Shown: in pieces, positions 133-44,007 of the stretch
Numbering within the stretch: position 1 is the stretch's first letter
Layout of the letters: every line of letters begins with the position of its first letter
From: a virus
Length of the DNA: 64,000 bases
Virus record (IMG/VR): IMGVR_UViG_3300027899_000012
Location: 1-64,000 of that record
Reading direction: 5' to 3' (one strand)
Notes under the pieces: model-generated
What the model was told of the DNA's origin: nothing
What the model saw: the letters and a program-made list of their open reading frames with translations, nothing else
Databases searched by the model: none
Made by a program: the position numbers and the translations under genes

Positions 133-830
133 TCGCGACCGGCCGGCTGACTTCGTCCAGCGACCTTTTCATCACGCAGGGGCGGGATGAAGGCTGGACC
201 AACCTCAAGACAGCGGCCGTTCTCGCGAACGACTCCAGCATGATCGTGCTCGCCGCACGCGTGCTGCAGTGGTTCCGGGCACCCGTCGTCCGCTCGTTCG
301 ACGGCGTCACTGGCGTCATCGATCGCAACGGCGATATCGGACCCCAGAACGTTGCCGACGGTTGGGTCTTCCCCAACGGCGCAGGCCAGCCTGCCATCGG
401 AAACGGCATCGGCGACTTCGAAGACGTGTACCGCCTTCACTGGCAGTGCGCAGAGGGCCTCTTCTGGACGATGGGAGCCGGAGAGAAGGACAGCCTGAAG
501 TCCATGCCCAGCATGTACTTCCCCTACGGTGGCGGTCTTTCCGGTGACATCGGTGGGTCGAGCGAACTCATCCATCTGCAGAACGGTCTGCCGACGCACA
601 CGGCCATCCTTCGGGTTGCTCGCGCCATCACCATCACCCCGCGCCAGCTCATCCGCGTCAACGTCAACGCGGTTGCGTACGACGACGGCGGAAACGGGAC
701 ACTCTTCGGATCGTCCACCACGCAGGGCCGCAACATGCTCAATCCGATCGACAACCTGAACGCGGCCGACGCGATCATGAAGGTCGTTTCGATGACGATC
801 GACGGCTTGCTCAGCCGCGACGTGCAGTAG
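60..830 (+). CDS. Candidate jelly-roll major capsid protein, paralog 1
   Basis: SD AAGGAG; 256 aa; HQPYRD...LF...G...TNL....L.ND pattern I associate with single jelly-roll capsid-like proteins; paralog of 958-1734. CDS certain, product tentative. Confidence 0.5.
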   Translation: MAKILNIRERVHQPYRDALIRTAGFATGRLTSSSDLFITQGRDEGWTNLKTAAVLANDSSMIVLAARVLQWFRAPVVRSFDGVTGVIDRNGDIGPQNVADGWVFPNGAGQPAIGNGIGDFEDVYRLHWQCAEGLFWTMGAGEKDSLKSMPSMYFPYGGGLSGDIGGSSELIHLQNGLPTHTAILRVARAITITPRQLIRVNVNAVAYDDGGNGTLFGSSTTQGRNMLNPIDNLNAADAIMKVVSMTIDGLLSRDVQ

Positions 831-6342: not shown

Positions 6343-6990
6343 ATGCCATCCATCCTCGACTTTTTTCGGGCGTCCATCAGCGGAGGCGGCGCGCAGGTAA
6401 ATCCCCTGCACATCGCCCAGGCCGTAGGGCAGTTCGCTCACACCCTGGAATCGTACGGAAATGACCGCGCCAAGGCTCTGCTCACGCACGTCCTGGCCCC
6501 GTGGGCGATCGGCATCGCGCAGAAGGCTCCCACCAAGTGGCTGCTGCCCGCTTCCGTTCCGCCCGTCTGCGCTCACGAAGAGCCCGCTGGGATCTGCGCC
6601 CAGTACGCCATGGGGGGGTGCCACCTGTGCGGCCGACCGGTGTGCCTCGGTCACGCCCTGGTCAGCGCCGACGCTACGCTGGTCTGCTGGGCCTGCATGA
6701 AACTGGCAGCTCAACACGCCACCCCCTGGCAACCGAGCCCTCAGCAGGCCCATGGCGTCGCAGGACAGGCCAACGATTGGGCCTACGACCTTCTGGGGAT
6801 CGAGAGAGACGCGACGGCGCTCGAAGCCAAGAAGGCGTACAAGCGAAAGATCGCCCAGTACCATCCCGACCGGCACGACAACGCGTCCGCCGACGAGAAG
6901 CGAGCCAATGGCGATCTAGTGCGAAGTTTGAAGAAGGCCTATGATCTGGTTGTTGCCGACATAGAAAAGCGAAAAGGCCGCCCAAAATGA
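6343..6990 (+). CDS. Zinc-binding plus DnaJ J-domain protein
   Basis: CxxC...CxxH...CxxC region; C-terminal AYDLLGI...KKAYKRKIAQYHPD...AYD J-domain with HPD. Confidence 0.9.
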   Translation: MPSILDFFRASISGGGAQVNPLHIAQAVGQFAHTLESYGNDRAKALLTHVLAPWAIGIAQKAPTKWLLPASVPPVCAHEEPAGICAQYAMGGCHLCGRPVCLGHALVSADATLVCWACMKLAAQHATPWQPSPQQAHGVAGQANDWAYDLLGIERDATALEAKKAYKRKIAQYHPDRHDNASADEKRANGDLVRSLKKAYDLVVADIEKRKGRPK

Positions 6991-7403
6991 GTTACGAACG
7001 CGCCAACGTGCTGGACAAGACCCCCGGGCTCGCCTTCGAGGCCTTCATTCCCGGAACAAGGAACCCGATGATCCCGCAAGCCATGTACCGACCCCGCGCC
7101 GCCGGTCCCCGCAGCCTCGTCGGGCTCGAAGGTCTCGGCGCGCACCAGTACTACGCGCCCCTGCGCCAGATGCGCCTTCCCCTGCAGGGGCTGGGCGCTG
7201 ACCCCATCACGGACCTTCTCGGCGGCACGCTCGACCAGGCCCTGCAGATGGTGATCGTGCGCAGCGCGCCTTTCATCCAGGCCCAGGTCAAGCCGATGAT
7301 TCAGCCCATTCAGATCCTGATGGGAATCACGGCTTTCGCGTCCGTCGTCGGCGCCGGCTTCGCTTTCCTCGCCTGGAAAAAGAGCAACGCTCTCGGATAT
7401 TAG
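6987..7403 (+). CDS. Small membrane protein
   Basis: ATGA overlap; LEGLG and LQGLG motifs; C-terminal TM. Confidence 0.75.
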   Translation: MSYERANVLDKTPGLAFEAFIPGTRNPMIPQAMYRPRAAGPRSLVGLEGLGAHQYYAPLRQMRLPLQGLGADPITDLLGGTLDQALQMVIVRSAPFIQAQVKPMIQPIQILMGITAFASVVGAGFAFLAWKKSNALGY

Positions 7404-7415
7404 CACGCGCGATGC

Positions 7416-7445
7416 TTGACGTAAGCACGTGCGCGCGCGTAGTCT
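7416..7445 (+). promoter_or_regulatory. Sigma70-like promoter, leaderless transcript
   Basis: TTGACG-18nt-TAGTCT-7nt-ATG(7453). Confidence 0.6.
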
Positions 7446-7452
7446 CGCCGAC

Positions 7453-8241
7453 ATGAGCGAGCCGAAGTCCGCCCCCCCCACGCAACCCGCCCCGCCGCCA
7501 GCCCCAGAGACCGCGCCGCAGCCTCGCGCCCCAGAGTGGGGCATGATGGCGGGAGACAGCCCCGCTCCCTTTGAGGAGGCGCCTGCGATGACGGACGAGC
7601 AACTGGACAGGGCCGTCGGGCTGCAGGAGCCCGAGGTCTGGGGCGCAAAGGGCGTCTGCCTGCCCCCCGGGGAAGCCAACAAGTATGCCGGCATCCAGGG
7701 CATCGTCCGGGGCGGCACCACCACCAGCGCCTACGACAACGCCCTGCAAGCCTCGATGGCCGATGCCGAGAAGCGCCGGGACCAGGACGACGCCGACAAG
7801 CGCCTGGCCCAGGTGCCCGTCGAACGCGGCGGCGCCATGATGTTCCAGCGGGAATTCGCCCCTCAGATGACCTCGCCCCGCGTGCTCATCCGGTACGTCG
7901 GCAAGGGCCGAGACGTCCTGAGCGAACAGCTGTGCGAACTGGTTGTGGATGACTCGTCGGGCCGCGAAGAGCACATGCTCATCTTCGTTTGCCCGGCCTG
8001 TTTCGAGCGTGGGGTACCCTCCGGATTTGCCCAGTGCCACGTCAAATCGACGCACCGAAAGTGGTACATCGATACGAAGGAAGCAGGGCAAATAAAGGCT
8101 GCTCGAAACTCCGATGCCCCCAGCGGGCAAGAGTTTTATACCACCGCCGGCACCGTCATGGATACCGACGTTCTGCGTTGCGACAACGTAAACTGCGGCG
8201 CGGCGTTCAAGATTCACAACAACGTCATGTACAGGGTGTAG
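7453..8241 (+). CDS. Hypothetical protein with C-terminal zinc-binding Cys motifs
   Basis: CPAC and CDNVNC; Pro-rich N-terminus. Confidence 0.7.
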   Translation: MSEPKSAPPTQPAPPPAPETAPQPRAPEWGMMAGDSPAPFEEAPAMTDEQLDRAVGLQEPEVWGAKGVCLPPGEANKYAGIQGIVRGGTTTSAYDNALQASMADAEKRRDQDDADKRLAQVPVERGGAMMFQREFAPQMTSPRVLIRYVGKGRDVLSEQLCELVVDDSSGREEHMLIFVCPACFERGVPSGFAQCHVKSTHRKWYIDTKEAGQIKAARNSDAPSGQEFYTTAGTVMDTDVLRCDNVNCGAAFKIHNNVMYRV

Positions 8242-8244
8242 CCG

Positions 8245-9594
8245 ATGGTCCAACCGCCCGATCTCGTGCCAGGTCTCGAAGAATTCTGGACGCCTGACGA
8301 AAGCCTGGAGGGGCTCGAAAAGGAAATCGCTCGCAAACCCCCCAAGTTCGGGCTCGGAAAGCCTCACCAGCACCCCTTCGGCGTCACCTACCGGGGCCCC
8401 TGGGAGACCATGCACGACGGCGTGTGCATCGCTGTTCGGCGAAACGCTTGCGCCCTTCGCAGAGCCAAGATTCCCGTGTTCCTGCAGAGCTTTTCACACA
8501 AGCACTGGAACCGCGGCATCGTCGAGTCTTCGTTCTACAAGGATTTGCCCCCGGCCGTCATTGAAGAGGTCGATCACCTGACTGAGCTTCACCACGAACG
8601 AAACGTGGCCATGATCCATCACTTCGTTCCATCGAAGGGTGAGTTTGCCGGCCAGCTTCACCCCGGTCCCATCCCCGGCGGCGAACAAGCTCGCGTGAGC
8701 ATGATCAAGCGAACGGCCGCCTACGCTGCCCTGGAATACGACAAGATCCCCGAGCAGTGGATCGAAGGCTTCAACGCGTTTGCGTGCGTCATCGTGCCCT
8801 GCGGCACCAACGCAGGCTGGCTGCGAGCAGCGGGCATCGGTGTGCCCGTGCACGTCGTGCCCCACCCCATGGCTCTGCGCGACCCGATGCGGTCGGCGAA
8901 GGCAAAGTACACGGCAGGGACGTTCAGGTTCCTGCACGTGGGCAAGTGGGAGCCTCGCAAGAACCAGCACGCGGTCATCGGGGCTTTCCTGCATGAGTTC
9001 GGCCCCAACGATGACGTGCAGATGGTCCTGAAATGCACTCCGTACTGGAGCGGCAAGGACTACCCGCAGAACGTGTCCGAGAGCGTCATGTACTGGTTGA
9101 AAAACCCGAAAGTGATCGAGAAAGGATGGACGGGCTCGAACGTTGCCAAACACCTGCAGGTTCTGTGGAAGAGGTCTCTGACTCGCGAAGAACTGGTGGA
9201 CCTGTACTCTTCTTGCCACTCGTACCTGCAGATCGGCCGGTCGGAAGGGTTCGACCTGCCGGCGTTCGACGCGCGGGTTGCGGGACTTCGGCTGGTGGCG
9301 ATGGCGTGGGGAGGCCCCGCGGACTTCATTGGCACGGACGACATTCGCATCAGGTACACCGATTTTTCGGCTCCTGCCGCTGCGTACGAGGCACCCGAAG
9401 GAACGCTGTGGCCCAAGCCCCCGATGGACGAACTGCAGGCCGCCATGGGAGCGGCTTTCATTCTGAGAAAGACGCCTTACGAAGTTTTCGATGCTTCTGC
9501 CTACACCATTGACGTGATCGGTCAGAAGTTGAGATCGATCGTCGAAACGATCGCTTTGACCGTCGGAGCGGACCTGGCGGGGTACGAGGCATGA
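8245..9594 (+). CDS. GT-B (GT4-like) glycosyltransferase
   Basis: FLHVGKWEPRKN and RSEGFDLP motifs. Confidence 0.9.
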   Translation: MVQPPDLVPGLEEFWTPDESLEGLEKEIARKPPKFGLGKPHQHPFGVTYRGPWETMHDGVCIAVRRNACALRRAKIPVFLQSFSHKHWNRGIVESSFYKDLPPAVIEEVDHLTELHHERNVAMIHHFVPSKGEFAGQLHPGPIPGGEQARVSMIKRTAAYAALEYDKIPEQWIEGFNAFACVIVPCGTNAGWLRAAGIGVPVHVVPHPMALRDPMRSAKAKYTAGTFRFLHVGKWEPRKNQHAVIGAFLHEFGPNDDVQMVLKCTPYWSGKDYPQNVSESVMYWLKNPKVIEKGWTGSNVAKHLQVLWKRSLTREELVDLYSSCHSYLQIGRSEGFDLPAFDARVAGLRLVAMAWGGPADFIGTDDIRIRYTDFSAPAAAYEAPEGTLWPKPPMDELQAAMGAAFILRKTPYEVFDASAYTIDVIGQKLRSIVETIALTVGADLAGYEA

Positions 9595-40122: not shown

Positions 40123-41622
40123 TCAGCCGGCGGCCGGCGGGGTGGAGCCCGATCCGTTGCCTTCGGCAACGGGAGCGCGCGCCTTGAATTTACGCGGCCC
40201 GGCCTTGCCCACGCCAAGGGTTCGGAGCGCTTCGCGCGCCCCGTCAAGCTTTGCGGCGATGGCATCGCGAGCGGTTCCAGACTCCCGGACCGCTTGCCAG
40301 TCCGCAACCCCGTCCAGGGTCGCCTTGATTTGTGCAGCCACGGCCGCGAGCGCCGTATCGTTTGTGACGTCCTTGGCGGCGAGATCCTTGAGCCATCCCT
40401 GAAGGCTCGCGATACGGACGTCGCGGAACGCCTTCCGCTTGCCATCCTCGCCCGGTCGCAGCAGGGCGGTTAGTTCATCGAGCATGGTGCCCGCTTGCAC
40501 GCGTGCGGCCGCCCGGATTTCGGCCCACGCTTCGCGCTGCTGTACTTTCATCGCTTCTGCATTTCGGGCCGCCATGGCCGTGTCCAGCCGCTTTGAACCC
40601 GTGAGATCCACCCATGTCGTGCTCGCCGTGTAGGACGCAACCGCGACCGATCGCGGCACGTAATCGGACGCGCGCCATACTCCCGGCAGTTCACGGATCC
40701 CGGTCATGGGATCGAGCCGTTCAACGACGTCCCGATCGTCGATGACAGCCTGATCGTAAACGTTGCCCAGCGCTTGCACCAGGGCAGGGCGGGTGCTGGT
40801 GATATAGTCGGCGGCGAGCGCTTCAACGCGATCCATCAAGGCGATCGGCACGGGATAGATCCCGCGCAGCTGGGAAGGCAACGCAACGGACCGGATCGCG
40901 AGCCGGAACGAATTGTCAGCGGCTTCGATGCTCGCATGCTCCGGGCAAGCGCTCAGAAGCTTGACGGTCGTTTTTGTGGACTTTTTACCCTTACCGCTTG
41001 CCGCCGGATCGGCCGGCGCTTGCGCGTCAAGGCTCGTTACCCGCACGCGATCCGTGATATCGCGGCCCACGCCAAGGCGGCCGAAATCCGCGCGGAACCA
41101 TACGACGTTCTTAAACGGATCCGTGATTTCCTTCGGCGCTTCTGCAAGGGCAGCGCGGAGCGCGGCATCCTCCGCCGTTTCACCGGTTGGGCCTTCGGCG
41201 GGGGGGGGCGCATCGCTGGACGGCTCCGCCGTCGCTTCGCTGGCAGCGGCCGCCACGGCCGCCGCGCCTTCGGCCTGTACCTCGATCGGGTTGCTCGCAA
41301 CCCGGGCTGGCAAGGGTTCGGGCTCCGGGTCCGCTTCGGGTTGCGCGACCGGTTCGACCGGTTCGCCTACCGCGATCGATTCGAGCCATCCCACGATCGC
41401 GATCCGAGCATCCGCCCGGGTCCCCTTCGGCAGCGCTCCGAGCAACGCGGCCGCCGCGCCGAACACGGGCAGCGCGGCCGTTGGCATCGTAGCGGCTTCG
41501 CGCTCGATTTCTGCCACGATTTCGGCGCGCTTCGATCCGCCGTCGAAAGTCGCAAGCAACGCATTGGACAGAACCGCATATTGATCAGAGGTGAGGGAGT
41601 AACGGGTTGTGCTGGTATTCAT
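40123..41622 (-). CDS. DUF3150-like protein
   Basis: GIYPVP...DY.P...helical C-terminus with DGKRKAFRD and DVTND; context with AAA module. Confidence 0.6.
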   Translation of the reverse strand: MNTSTTRYSLTSDQYAVLSNALLATFDGGSKRAEIVAEIEREAATMPTAALPVFGAAAALLGALPKGTRADARIAIVGWLESIAVGEPVEPVAQPEADPEPEPLPARVASNPIEVQAEGAAAVAAAASEATAEPSSDAPPPAEGPTGETAEDAALRAALAEAPKEITDPFKNVVWFRADFGRLGVGRDITDRVRVTSLDAQAPADPAASGKGKKSTKTTVKLLSACPEHASIEAADNSFRLAIRSVALPSQLRGIYPVPIALMDRVEALAADYITSTRPALVQALGNVYDQAVIDDRDVVERLDPMTGIRELPGVWRASDYVPRSVAVASYTASTTWVDLTGSKRLDTAMAARNAEAMKVQQREAWAEIRAAARVQAGTMLDELTALLRPGEDGKRKAFRDVRIASLQGWLKDLAAKDVTNDTALAAVAAQIKATLDGVADWQAVRESGTARDAIAAKLDGAREALRTLGVGKAGPRKFKARAPVAEGNGSGSTPPAAG

Positions 41623-41666
41623 GGCTTCGTCTGCTTTCTGCCCGGACACTCCGGGCGTTTGTGGGC

Positions 41667-41918
41667 CTATTGCTTGATCCGTTCGGGTTGCTTGGCTTGC
41701 TCGCGTACCATGCCCTTGACCACGCGAGCGGAGCTTTCGATCGTCACGTTCGCCGCTCGCGCAAATGCCGCGATCGCGTCCGCCACGGTCGAATGCGACG
41801 TCTGCATTTTTCCGGTCACGATCTTGATCACCCCAGACGGGGCGATCGTGATTTCGAGCGTATCCGTTGCCACGGTTTCACCGTTCGGGCCGTGTGAATG
41901 ATTGGAATTGCCGCACAT
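41667..41918 (-). CDS. DUF2997-like small protein
   Basis: DTLEITIAPSGVIKIVTG beta-hairpin; context; SD GGAGG. Confidence 0.6.
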   Translation of the reverse strand: MCGNSNHSHGPNGETVATDTLEITIAPSGVIKIVTGKMQTSHSTVADAIAAFARAANVTIESSARVVKGMVREQAKQPERIKQ

Positions 41919-41926
41919 GGTTGCAC

Positions 41927-42313
41927 CTACCTCCGGAACGTGAGCTTAACCGCCCCGTCGCTTTGTTTCACCGTGCTCGTATGCTTGAATCCGAACCGTT
42001 TGAGCGACACTTGGGCCGCCTTTGTGCCGTACGCCTGTCGGATCTCGCCGGTCATGCGCTCGACGTCCGCTTCCGTCCCTTCCTCGATCCGGATCCGCGA
42101 TCCGGACTGCCGAACGTTCAACGTTGACGTCCCCTTGCGAGCTACCAGCAAATCGCTGGCCAGCTTGACGTTCCGAGCATGGCCCCGAACGATCGCCCCT
42201 TCCTGGTACAGGGTGACGGTCCAACCGTCGCTTTCGAGCGCTTGCGCCAGCATGGCGCGATCCATCCCGTCCAGGTTGAGCCTGGAAGTCGTGTACTTTG
42301 TATCGCATGGCAT
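41927..42313 (-). CDS. DUF1257/Ycf35-like protein
   Basis: MPC...LAQALESDGW...IRQAYG...KRFGF pattern; context. Confidence 0.65.
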   Translation of the reverse strand: MPCDTKYTTSRLNLDGMDRAMLAQALESDGWTVTLYQEGAIVRGHARNVKLASDLLVARKGTSTLNVRQSGSRIRIEEGTEADVERMTGEIRQAYGTKAAQVSLKRFGFKHTSTVKQSDGAVKLTFRR

Positions 42314-42315
42314 GA

Positions 42316-43965
42316 CTAAAAATCCTCGCCCGGGTCGGGAGTTTCCGTAGGGGGGGGCGCAGCAGGAGCCGGAGCGGCCGCCCGAAGCTTGCGACCGGCC
42401 GCCGGTGTCATCAGTGCGGCCGCAGACGGCGCGACATACGGGCGCCCCGTGGACGCGTCCGTATAGCTGTTTTCTGCGGCGATTCGATTGCGCTCGGCTA
42501 CTTCCTTGCCCACCTTTCGCAAGCTTGCCACGTGCCGCTCCGCCGCTTGCTGGACGGTGATACCGTAATCGAGCGACTTCTGGATCGCCTGCACGATATC
42601 GCGACCCGTCCATCCCTGGTAGAGCGCTTGCGGCGGCCGCTCGGACGGCGGGAGCCCGAATTTGCGCAACTGGGCAAGCCAGATCCCTTCCAGCTGGGCA
42701 GCGTCGGGCACCCCAAAGTAGAACGTCTCAACCATGCGCGATGTAAACTCTTCGCGAAATAGCGGGGCGCCGGTGTCATCGTGCGTCCGATTGCAGGTTG
42801 CGAACCATAGGTGCACGCCCCCGAACGCTACCAGCCGTGCGAACGCTTGCTCCGCGTTTCTTTTTGACGCTCCGACATACTCGTTTTTTAGACTGTCCGT
42901 ATCCAGCATGACGATCGGGCACTGGGCAAGGCTGGCCACAACCCTGGCCAGCGTGGACTTGCCCACGCCCGGCAATCCGCTTGACAGGATCGTGATGTTC
43001 CGGAGCACGCGCGGATCCGGGTAAGCAAGGTGAGTGAGCAGCGACTTGAAAATCCCGGCCGTCGCTCCGCCGTCGCGCGCATCCGACCCGGATTGTACGA
43101 TTTTTTCGGCTTCATCCAACAACACGACAAGGCGGATCGGGATCCGCTTCACTAGATCCCCTGCCCAGTCCAGGACATAGGGTATGCCTGCGAAGTGTTC
43201 GGGCCGTTCGGGCTGATCAATCGTGATACCGGGCAGCGCGCCCAACATTTCGCGGGTCCGTGCGCCGACCACGTCAAGGTCAAGGCGTCCCGTGGCGCAC
43301 CCCAGGGATCCAGCCTGCGACACTTGGAACCCCGTGAGCGAAGCCGTGGCCCCGCTTGCCGCCGCAATCGAGCGATCGTCCGCGGGAATGCTATTTTCCG
43401 CGCACAAGTCGCGAACGACCCCGGCGCGCTCCGCGTCCGATGGCAAGGGATCCCGGACAAGCAAGACGTCACCCTGTATCAGGGCAGGGATCCGACCCGG
43501 GTCGTTACCCAACCCAATGACCATGGATTCCGATCCGCCCGCACAAAGCCAGTCGCGAAGGCGTAGCAGGGCGAGCGCAACCCCGGGTTTGTTCCAGACG
43601 TCGTCCGCGTCCCACCATACCAGGACGGACCGGGGCGGGATCCCGTATCGTCGGGTTGTTTCCGGGTCGATCCAGGGGCGCATAGCCTTGCACGCTTCAA
43701 GCGGCTCGCAAAGCATGCTCGGATCCTTCTCGCCGCAGAAGTCGCCGATCGAATCGCGCGCAGCGTCGTTCAAGGGTTCGAGTCCCCAGGTTGAGTCAAG
43801 GTGCCACATGGGGGGGCAGTCCAGACCGCGGGCCGCCGCGTCGTTGGCGATCGATTCTGCGATCGCCGATTCGGCAGCAGGCTGATCACCCGTGGCGAGG
43901 TACGCGATCGGAACGGATACGCCGTACGCTAGGACAATTTGAGCCGTGAATTTCGGGGCCGTCAT
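42316..43965 (-). CDS. Ycf46-like AAA+ ATPase with permuted Walker motif order
   Basis: VVLLDEAEK, GLPGVGKS, YVGAS, FATCN, GWTGRDI. Confidence 0.88.
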   Translation of the reverse strand: MTAPKFTAQIVLAYGVSVPIAYLATGDQPAAESAIAESIANDAAARGLDCPPMWHLDSTWGLEPLNDAARDSIGDFCGEKDPSMLCEPLEACKAMRPWIDPETTRRYGIPPRSVLVWWDADDVWNKPGVALALLRLRDWLCAGGSESMVIGLGNDPGRIPALIQGDVLLVRDPLPSDAERAGVVRDLCAENSIPADDRSIAAASGATASLTGFQVSQAGSLGCATGRLDLDVVGARTREMLGALPGITIDQPERPEHFAGIPYVLDWAGDLVKRIPIRLVVLLDEAEKIVQSGSDARDGGATAGIFKSLLTHLAYPDPRVLRNITILSSGLPGVGKSTLARVVASLAQCPIVMLDTDSLKNEYVGASKRNAEQAFARLVAFGGVHLWFATCNRTHDDTGAPLFREEFTSRMVETFYFGVPDAAQLEGIWLAQLRKFGLPPSERPPQALYQGWTGRDIVQAIQKSLDYGITVQQAAERHVASLRKVGKEVAERNRIAAENSYTDASTGRPYVAPSAAALMTPAAGRKLRAAAPAPAAPPPTETPDPGEDF

Positions 43966-44007
43966 TTTCTGTACTCGCTTTCTGCGGCGACACTCGCCGC
44001 ACCAGGG

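Follow-up and report, generated by a model that had tools for sequence, protein, structure and literature searches.

The closest described relatives of the protein analyzed here are the Ycf46-like AAA ATPases of phages and bacteria, in which the chain runs in the normal order, with the Walker A block ahead of the Walker B block, and which include mycobacteriophage Corndog gp96, Pseudomonas phage SM1 gp026, Rhizobium phage vB_RleS_L338C 050, Aeromonas phage HJ05 65, Rhodobacter phage RcTiptonus gp60, Streptococcus satellite phage Javan368 0002, and Planctomycetota proteins at four of the loci collected here (L162-L165). Also similar are cyanobacterial and plastid Ycf46, a protein whose function is itself poorly known, and the type II classical AAA proteins with two modules, namely p97/Cdc48, Rix7/NVL, Pex1/Pex6, and NSF, all of which have the normal Walker order and the first modules of which appear to bind nucleotide. 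DUF1257 is Ycf35, and it clusters with DUF2997 in cyanobacteria (PMC4284462, PMC13060386). A departure from the usual motif order has a probable parallel in the circularly permuted GTPases of the YjeQ/RsgA and YlqF type, which are also P-loop NTPases with conserved motifs in an unusual order and a retained fold; there, however, the whole domain is circularly permuted, and the Walker B-type motif seems still to follow the P-loop.

In the sections below, we describe a phage gene that encodes an AAA ATPase in which the segment carrying the Walker B residues lies in front of the ATP-binding loop instead of behind it, a rearrangement shared by a large family that keeps the catalytic residues. The gene lies in a window of 64,000 nucleotides, corresponding to positions 1 to 64,000 of the metagenome-derived IMG/VR virus record IMGVR_UViG_3300027899_000012. 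A preliminary description, made from the sequence alone, had noted the unusual order and inferred an internal segment swap that keeps all catalytic residues and gives a rewired AAA core; our analysis confirms the observation and supports the inference. Full-text searches of the literature, which covered papers selectively and no supplementary files, found no report of an AAA protein with Walker B ahead of Walker A (PMC4284462, PMC13060386, PMC7824862, PMC10954446, and PMC12870095 being among those consulted).

Sequence Organization of the Permuted ATPase

The open reading frame at 42316..43965 (-) encodes 549 amino acids plus a stop codon, is a single open frame without internal stops, and matches positions 3-501 of the 506-position family profile at E 1.5e-123. 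Residues 1-243 (43237..43965, -) form an N-terminal AAA-like module, consisting of an a/b core and a four-helix lid, which lacks a P-loop and in which R137 and P175 are near-invariant (R in 227 of 228 and P in 228 of 228 sequences). The second module begins with helix a0 (residues 262-274; 43144..43182, -), which runs directly into the Walker B strand instead of into b1. Block A (residues 276-318; 43012..43140, -) comprises strand b3 with Walker B, K288, a Gly-rich loop (G300), and helix a3; its VVLLDEAEK stretch (residues 280-288) maps to 43128-43102, with D284/E285 at 43111-43116. Block B (residues 322-382; 42820..43002, -) follows, with b1, the Walker A motif GLPGVGKS (residues 330-337; 42978-42955), a1, b2, a short helix, the pore loop YVG (residues 363-365; 42871-42879), and a2, so that Walker B lies 45 residues before Walker A. 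Block C (residues 383-500; 42466..42819, -) contains b4 with the WFATCN stretch (residues 387-392) and sensor I N392 (42790-42792), R410 at the arginine-finger position (42736-42738), b5, and a helical lid with GWTGRDI. The C-terminal tail (residues 501-549; 42319..42465, -) is Pro/Ala-rich at its end and is modeled with low confidence (pLDDT 73, 53, 66, and 63 in the last four blocks). No acidic hhhhDE strand lies between helix a2 (364-381) and the sensor I strand (384-391).

Standard domain models recover only part of this organization. Pfam PF00004 scores 42.7 bits against a cutoff of 21.2, but matches only residues 327-377, on profile positions 2-52 of 131, and the PHROG, NCBIfam, and PADLOC hits likewise stop at about residue 375-388. 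The protein does not match the IetA/IteA anti-phage ATPase over its full length, since only the P-loop stretch 324-375 is hit, at 25.3 bits against a cutoff of 510, with a partial PADLOC hit to IetA at E 1.8e-6.

Conservation of the Block Order and Catalytic Residues

The order is family-wide: block A precedes block B in 402 of 406 distinct full-length sequences, and the 4 exceptions are normal-order Planctomycetota proteins. D284 is D in 395 and E in 7 of 406, E285 is E in 401, K336 is K in 405, G365 is G in 403, and N392 and R410 are each kept in 403 of 406. This protein has one Arg in the second region of homology (SRM), whereas the family consensus is RRRF, and its YVG pore loop is mostly LVG in the family. 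Two members carry inteins inside the P-loop. These observations all but eliminate the possibility that the order is an artifact of assembly, frameshift, or gene fusion, a concern raised by the metagenomic source of the record: the sequences come from viral contigs, from bacterial genome assemblies including the complete Nitrospira moscoviensis chromosome, and from a cultured phage, Tunturi_3, and an independent reassembly (a Logan contig of 22,388 bp, probably from the source sample) covers 42395-43965 with 0 differences. Among cultured phages, only Tunturiibacter phage Tunturi_3 carries a permuted member at E<=1e-5, and a tblastn search of plasmids gave no match. A word-index search with a 148-row profile returned 13 hits and was dominated by generic AAA words.

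Homology of the Exchanged Blocks

When the family profile was compared with sequences of known structure, Cdc48 D2 was matched out of order, with chain 528-586 aligning to profile 302-360, chain 584-626 to profile 259-298, and chain 630-722 to profile 361-448. Against close normal-order relatives the same pattern is much stronger: 6 of 6 tested phage proteins give the order N-B-A-C with abutting blocks, as exemplified by Corndog gp96 (N 27-286, B 315-372, A 373-412, C 414-538), and the profile of the DE segment scores 38-49 bits on their Walker B/a3 segment, compared with 3.7 bits for the best of 1600 shuffled sequences. The N-domain profile scores 19-65 bits on the same 6 of 6 proteins, which thus share the P-loop-less module. 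Against distant AAA proteins, however, the block A match is weak, being clear in 2 of 8, borderline at the right place in 2, borderline at a wrong place in 1, and absent in 3.

The preliminary description had itself raised the possibility that the DE motif is the leftover Walker B of a degenerate N-terminal AAA module, in which case nothing would be permuted. Although the protein does have such a P-loop-less module, this reading is very unlikely, as the module is complete without the DE strand: in the AlphaFold2 model its strands are 20-24, 53-57, 114-118, 148-153, and 168-171, its four lid helices run from 177 to 242, and helix a0 of the second module comes before the DE strand (277-283). In addition, in normal-order relatives the N-domain profile ends at about 226-286, while block A lies after Walker A at 331-412.

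Predicted Fold and Coevolution

The AlphaFold2 model (pLDDT 93.3, pTM 0.87) has the strand and helix order given above, including a short helix (356-359) between b2 and a2, which appears to be typical of the classical clade. Residues 1..509 of the model align to p97 D1+D2 207..764 (Z 18.6, rmsd 4.0, 408 aligned), the best solved-structure match over both modules, with Pex1/Pex6 and Rix7 at Z 14.8, although sequence identity to the type II proteins is only 13-18%. Residues 1..247 align to NSF D2 (Z 10.0), Rubisco activase (Z 10.1), and a clamp-loader-like chain (Z 11.2), whereas residues 244..500 align as one unit to p97 D2 465..763 (Z 15.3, rmsd 2.8, 204 aligned) and also to Vps4 (Z 15.3). The predicted structure is similar over its whole length to an Atlas cluster named 'ycf46' (507 aa, TM 0.67/0.72, 436 residues aligned over 6-512).

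The position of the moved strand within the sheet is inferred from coevolution and topology rather than from model coordinates, and is therefore best regarded as an apparent retention of the fold. In an alignment of 406 sequences (effective number 295), pairs 279-382 and 286-389 rank 3 and 6 of 31,626, pairs 281-387, 281-354, and 280-386 rank 51, 54, and 60, and 8 a3-a2 pairs fall in the top 100. Among 10 strand pairs, b3-b4 ranks first, b3-b2 second, and b1-b5 third, while a direct b2-b4 pairing ranks 7th and is reached by 30% of null windows. These scores are only moderately above the null, b3-b4 being reached by 2.6% and b3-b2 by 3.8% of null windows; the known neighbors b1-b4, which rank fifth, reach only 7%, and one non-neighbor pair, b4-b5, ranks 4th. 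Taken as they stand, the data appear to place the moved strand beside b4 and b2 and to pack a3 on a2, as in the normal fold.

It could still be argued that the DE strand, although real and conserved, is a structural strand elsewhere, such as an edge strand or part of the linker to the N-terminal module, and that the protein binds but does not hydrolyze nucleotide, or uses another acid. D284 and E285 indeed show no coevolution with the P-loop (invariant residues such as D284, E285, and K336 rank 1470-8251 in a run with 228 sequences), although invariant columns cannot show any, and an acidic residue also follows b2 (LDTD, residues 354-357). We consider this alternative unlikely, given the homology of block A to the segment that is Walker B plus a3 in normal-order relatives, the coevolution of the strand with b4 and b2, and the lack of room for another strand between a2, which ends at 381, and b4, which starts at 384; the conservation of D284/E285, N392, and R410, each in at least 395 of 406 sequences, is hard to explain without hydrolysis.

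Evolutionary Origin

In a tree, 106 of 106 sampled permuted sequences form one clade (SH-like support 0.879), which is sister to normal-order Planctomycetota proteins (0.917) and nested among normal-order phage proteins, indicating that the swap arose once, from a normal-order ancestor. Support is FastTree SH-like only, and only 10 normal-order sequences were included. The likeliest route is inferred to be duplication of the two blocks followed by loss of the outer copies, but this route has no direct trace, as no extra block A or B above 8 bits was found in 406 sequences.

Gene Neighborhood

The gene heads a conserved module. The first downstream gene (41927..42313, -; 128 aa) is DUF1257/Ycf35-like, with a Pfam DUF1257 match at E 0.0028 and 18.3 bits, below the 22.2 cutoff, and its ATG lies 2 nt after the ATPase stop codon (TAG-tc-ATG). 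The second (41667..41918, -; 83 aa) encodes a small protein with no Pfam hit. The third (40123..41649, -; 508 aa) has a DUF3150-like C-terminal region of ~300 aa and a poorly modeled N-terminal extension; one homologue reaches PF11348 DUF3150 at 25.3 bits against a cutoff of 24.9. Homologues of the three genes lie on the same strand in 136, 45, and 139 of 161 family loci, respectively. DUF1257-like and small partner genes also lie downstream in 4 of 6 normal-order phages, and the normal-order Planctomycetota locus L163 has DUF1257-like and DUF3150-like neighbors.

The partners gave no informative family or fold match. Pfam searches of the neighboring genes gave only four chance-level hits below their cutoffs, and PHROGs gave none. 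For the third partner, the profile has no PDB sequence match below E 0.2, and its AlphaFold2 model (pLDDT 71.4) has no Foldseek match below E 1.1. PADLOC found nothing for the window's three partner proteins, although one relative's third partner gave a marginal HamB hit at E 0.0032.

Discussion

We conclude with high confidence that the gene encodes a Ycf46-like, classical-clade AAA ATPase built from two AAA-type modules. The first module has lost its P-loop and probably serves as a structural ring or partner-binding platform, whereas the second (residues 244-500) is the motor, in which two neighboring blocks of the chain have changed places. Normal relatives run a0, [b1-WalkerA-a1-b2-pore loop-a2], [b3-WalkerB-loop-a3], b4-sensor I, whereas this protein runs a0, [b3-WalkerB-loop-a3], [b1-WalkerA-a1-b2-pore loop-a2], b4-sensor I, so that the links a0-b1, a2-b3, and a3-b4 are replaced by a0-b3, a3-b1, and a2-b4. 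The ends of the domain stay in place. The moved strand is inferred still to sit between b2 and b4, so that D284/E285 would face the P-loop (K336/S337), sensor I (N392), and the neighbor's R410, with all three changed links remaining right-handed crossovers on the usual faces of the sheet. On this inference, the protein should bind and hydrolyze ATP as a ring and pull on a protein substrate with its pore loop, and it likely acts together with the apparently co-transcribed DUF1257-like, small, and DUF3150-like proteins.

A broader reading, which we regard as somewhat more likely than not, is that this protein belongs to the first known natural lineage in which the core of an AAA+ ATPase is rewired by a non-circular permutation, and that this lineage, having arisen once, has since spread to more than a thousand sequence clusters in phages and bacteria. 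The motor would still work, but with changed internal couplings, the pore-loop-1 helix a2 being joined directly to the sensor I strand and helix a3 to the P-loop strand, while the a3-b4 loop, which probably relays signals between subunits in ordinary classical AAA proteins, would no longer exist.

The AAA+ core is one of the most studied protein folds, and to our knowledge its chain order of Walker A, then Walker B, then sensor I is treated as fixed and is assumed by domain models and annotation pipelines, which is why the Pfam, PHROG, NCBIfam, and PADLOC models match only about 50 residues of this protein. The finding flags a widespread four-gene phage and bacterial module of unknown function as worth studying. 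A large, conserved, and apparently active family with the two blocks exchanged suggests that the fold tolerates non-circular rewiring, offers a natural test of which covalent links matter for coupling ATP hydrolysis to pore-loop movement, and gives a dated, single evolutionary event with living normal-order sister proteins for comparison.

Sequence order and motif positions

The ORF at 42316..43965 on the minus strand encodes 549 residues, and its motifs lie exactly where the preliminary description had placed them: VVLLDEAEK is residues 280-288 (43128-43102), GLPGVGKS is residues 330-337 (42978-42955), YVG is residues 363-365, and WFATCN is residues 387-392. The AAA model of Pfam matches only residues 327-377, on profile positions 2-52 of 131, and the PHROG, NCBIfam, and PADLOC models also stop at about residue 375-388; the protein therefore stops being colinear with ordinary AAA domains right after the pore-loop helix. 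The window is part of a 90,242-bp virus record that is rated 91% complete by CheckV. Upstream of the ATPase start, at 43984-44000 on the minus strand, a 7-bp stem with a GTG loop (GCGGCGA-GTG-TCGCCGC) lies about 20 nt before the ATG, and a TTGACA box is found at 44035-44030, although a consensus scan listed no promoter there.

Conservation of the order across the family

The unusual order is a family trait, not an error. An exhaustive phmmer search gave 1210 cluster representatives at E<=1e-3 and 780 at E<=1e-10. These representatives were then pooled with 80 viral-contig loci (220 relatives among 587 pattern stretches), with 80 bacterial-genome loci (335 relatives among 600 stretches), mostly from Acidobacteriota, Nitrospirota (including the complete Nitrospira moscoviensis chromosome), Planctomycetota, and Myxococcota, and with 118 further proteins found with the N-terminal domain, giving 406 distinct full-length sequences. 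The counts at the key positions, each of 406, are D in 395 and E in 7 at D284, E in 401 at E285, 405 for K336, 403 for N392, and 403 for R410. Block A (Walker B plus a3) precedes block B (Walker A to a2) in 402 of 406 sequences, whereas the other four, the loci L162-L165, all from Planctomycetota genomes, have the normal order and are thus true normal-order relatives rather than errors. In addition, a separate assembly of the probable source run covers 42395-43965 without a difference.

Three relatives outside the window (proteins P0177, P0260, and P0164) carry intein-like inserts, two of which sit inside the Walker A loop, after GPPG and before AKS, and are about 280 aa long (P0260 carries Pfam PF14890), while one sits in the lid after GWTGAEIKQCC and is about 245 aa long. 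One viral contig (locus L028) also carries a second, ordinary-order AAA gene of 583 aa, at 6604-8355, directly after the permuted one.

Exchange of two blocks

A profile of 148 members searched against all PDB sequences hits Cdc48/p97 best, but out of order: in Cdc48 D2, chain 528-586 aligns to profile 302-360, chain 584-626 to profile 259-298, and chain 630-722 to profile 361-448. Against such distant proteins the block A hit is weak, at 13.6 bits in this search, and in a separate comparison it was clear in only 2 of 8 ordinary AAA proteins. We turned to six normal-order Ycf46-like phage proteins, namely Corndog gp96, SM1 gp026, L338C 050, HJ05 65, RcTiptonus gp60, and Javan368 0002. All six match the N-domain profile (19-65 bits) and then match block B, block A (38-49 bits, against 3.7 for the best of 1600 shuffles), and block C, in that order and abutting, with the ranges in Corndog gp96 being N 27-286, B 315-372, A 373-412, and C 414-538. 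So normal relatives read N-B-A-C and this family reads N-A-B-C, a clean exchange of two blocks.

Predicted organization of the two modules

The AlphaFold2 model built on the 148-row alignment is confident (pLDDT 93.3, pTM 0.87), and in it residues 1-243 (43237-43965) form a complete a/b core plus a four-helix lid. On their own, these residues align to NSF D2 (Z 10.0), Rubisco activase (Z 10.1), and clamp-loader subunits (Z up to 11.2), while the whole model aligns to p97 D1+D2 (Z 18.6, rmsd 4.0, 408 residues aligned). This first module has no P-loop; it keeps near-invariant residues, with R137 in 227 of 228 sequences and P175 in 228 of 228. The second module then runs from helix a0 (262-274) into the DE strand (277-283), a helix at 287-293, and a3 (301-313), followed by b1 (323-330), a1 (336-346), b2 (351-354), a short helix (356-359), a2 (364-381), b4 (384-391), and b5 (413-417), with the lid after b5; the DE strand belongs to the second module. 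Residues 244..500 align to p97 D2 465..763 (Z 15.3, rmsd 2.8), with 204 residues aligned, which leaves about the size of the moved block unaligned.

The position of the moved strand in space was inferred from coevolution rather than from the coordinates of the model, using mean-field direct coupling on residues 244-500, first with 228 sequences and then with 406 (effective number 295). Of 31,626 pairs, 279-382 ranks 3 and 286-389 ranks 6, the pairs 281-387, 281-354, and 280-386 rank 51, 54, and 60, and eight of the top 100 pairs join a3 to a2. Scoring of the ten possible strand pairs placed b3-b4 first (reached by 2.6% of null windows), b3-b2 second (3.8%), b1-b5 third, and b1-b4 fifth, whereas a direct b2-b4 pairing is seventh (30%). 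The margins are modest, and one non-neighbour pair (b4-b5) ranks fourth, but the ranking is consistent with the normal spatial order b5-b1-b4-b3-b2. Reasoning from the usual AAA topology, rather than from a computation, suggests that the three new links (a0 to b3, a3 to b1, and a2 to b4) can all stay right-handed crossovers on the same faces of the sheet as in the normal fold.

Origin of the permuted clade

FastTree trees were built on the 216 aligned columns of blocks B, A, and C, placed in a common order. All sampled permuted sequences fall in one clade, 75 of 75 in a first tree and 106 of 106 in a second (SH-like support 0.879), from which two rows, an intein-bearing fragment and a truncated ORF, had been dropped. 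This clade is sister to the normal-order Planctomycetota proteins (0.917), represented by L162-L165, and is nested among normal-order phage proteins, with FtsH-like and p97-like proteins as outgroups. Duplication of the two blocks followed by loss of the outer copies is the standard route to such an exchange, but it has no direct trace here, as no relic block copies were found.

Relationship to known proteins

The closest known proteins are the normal-order Ycf46-like ATPases, and an Atlas cluster named ycf46 is the nearest named structural neighbour (TM 0.67/0.72). No member of the family has a solved structure, and full-text literature searches, which left most subscription journals uncovered and so do not prove absence, found no description of an AAA with Walker B ahead of Walker A. 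What sets the protein apart from these relatives is an internal, non-circular exchange of two blocks within what is inferred to be an AAA+ motor.

Genomic context and inferred function

The ATPase gene is followed, 2 nt after its stop, by a 128-aa gene whose product hits DUF1257/Ycf35 just below the cut-off, and next come an 83-aa gene and a 508-aa gene. Iterative searches from these three proteins find same-strand homologues in 136, 45, and 139 of 161 family loci, respectively, with the commonest orders being AAA-1-3 (47 loci) and AAA-1-2-3 (28 loci). Four of six normal-order phage ATPases have the first two partners downstream, and the normal-order Planctomycetota locus L163 has DUF1257-like and DUF3150-like neighbours. 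One homologue of the third protein passes the Pfam DUF3150 cut-off. This DUF3150-like protein (40123-41649, minus strand) is 508 aa here, against about 300 aa in relatives, and the extra ~200 N-terminal residues are Ala/Pro-rich and modelled at pLDDT below 60. Its homologue in Tunturiibacter phage Tunturi_3 (gp96; locus L001, 8270-9298) is annotated as "HNH endonuclease" in the phage record, but our profile links it to the partner family at E 2.9e-82, and we saw nothing that supports the HNH name. None of the partners has an informative family, defence-system, or fold match. From the motifs we infer a ring-forming, ATP-driven protein-remodelling motor that works with these partners.
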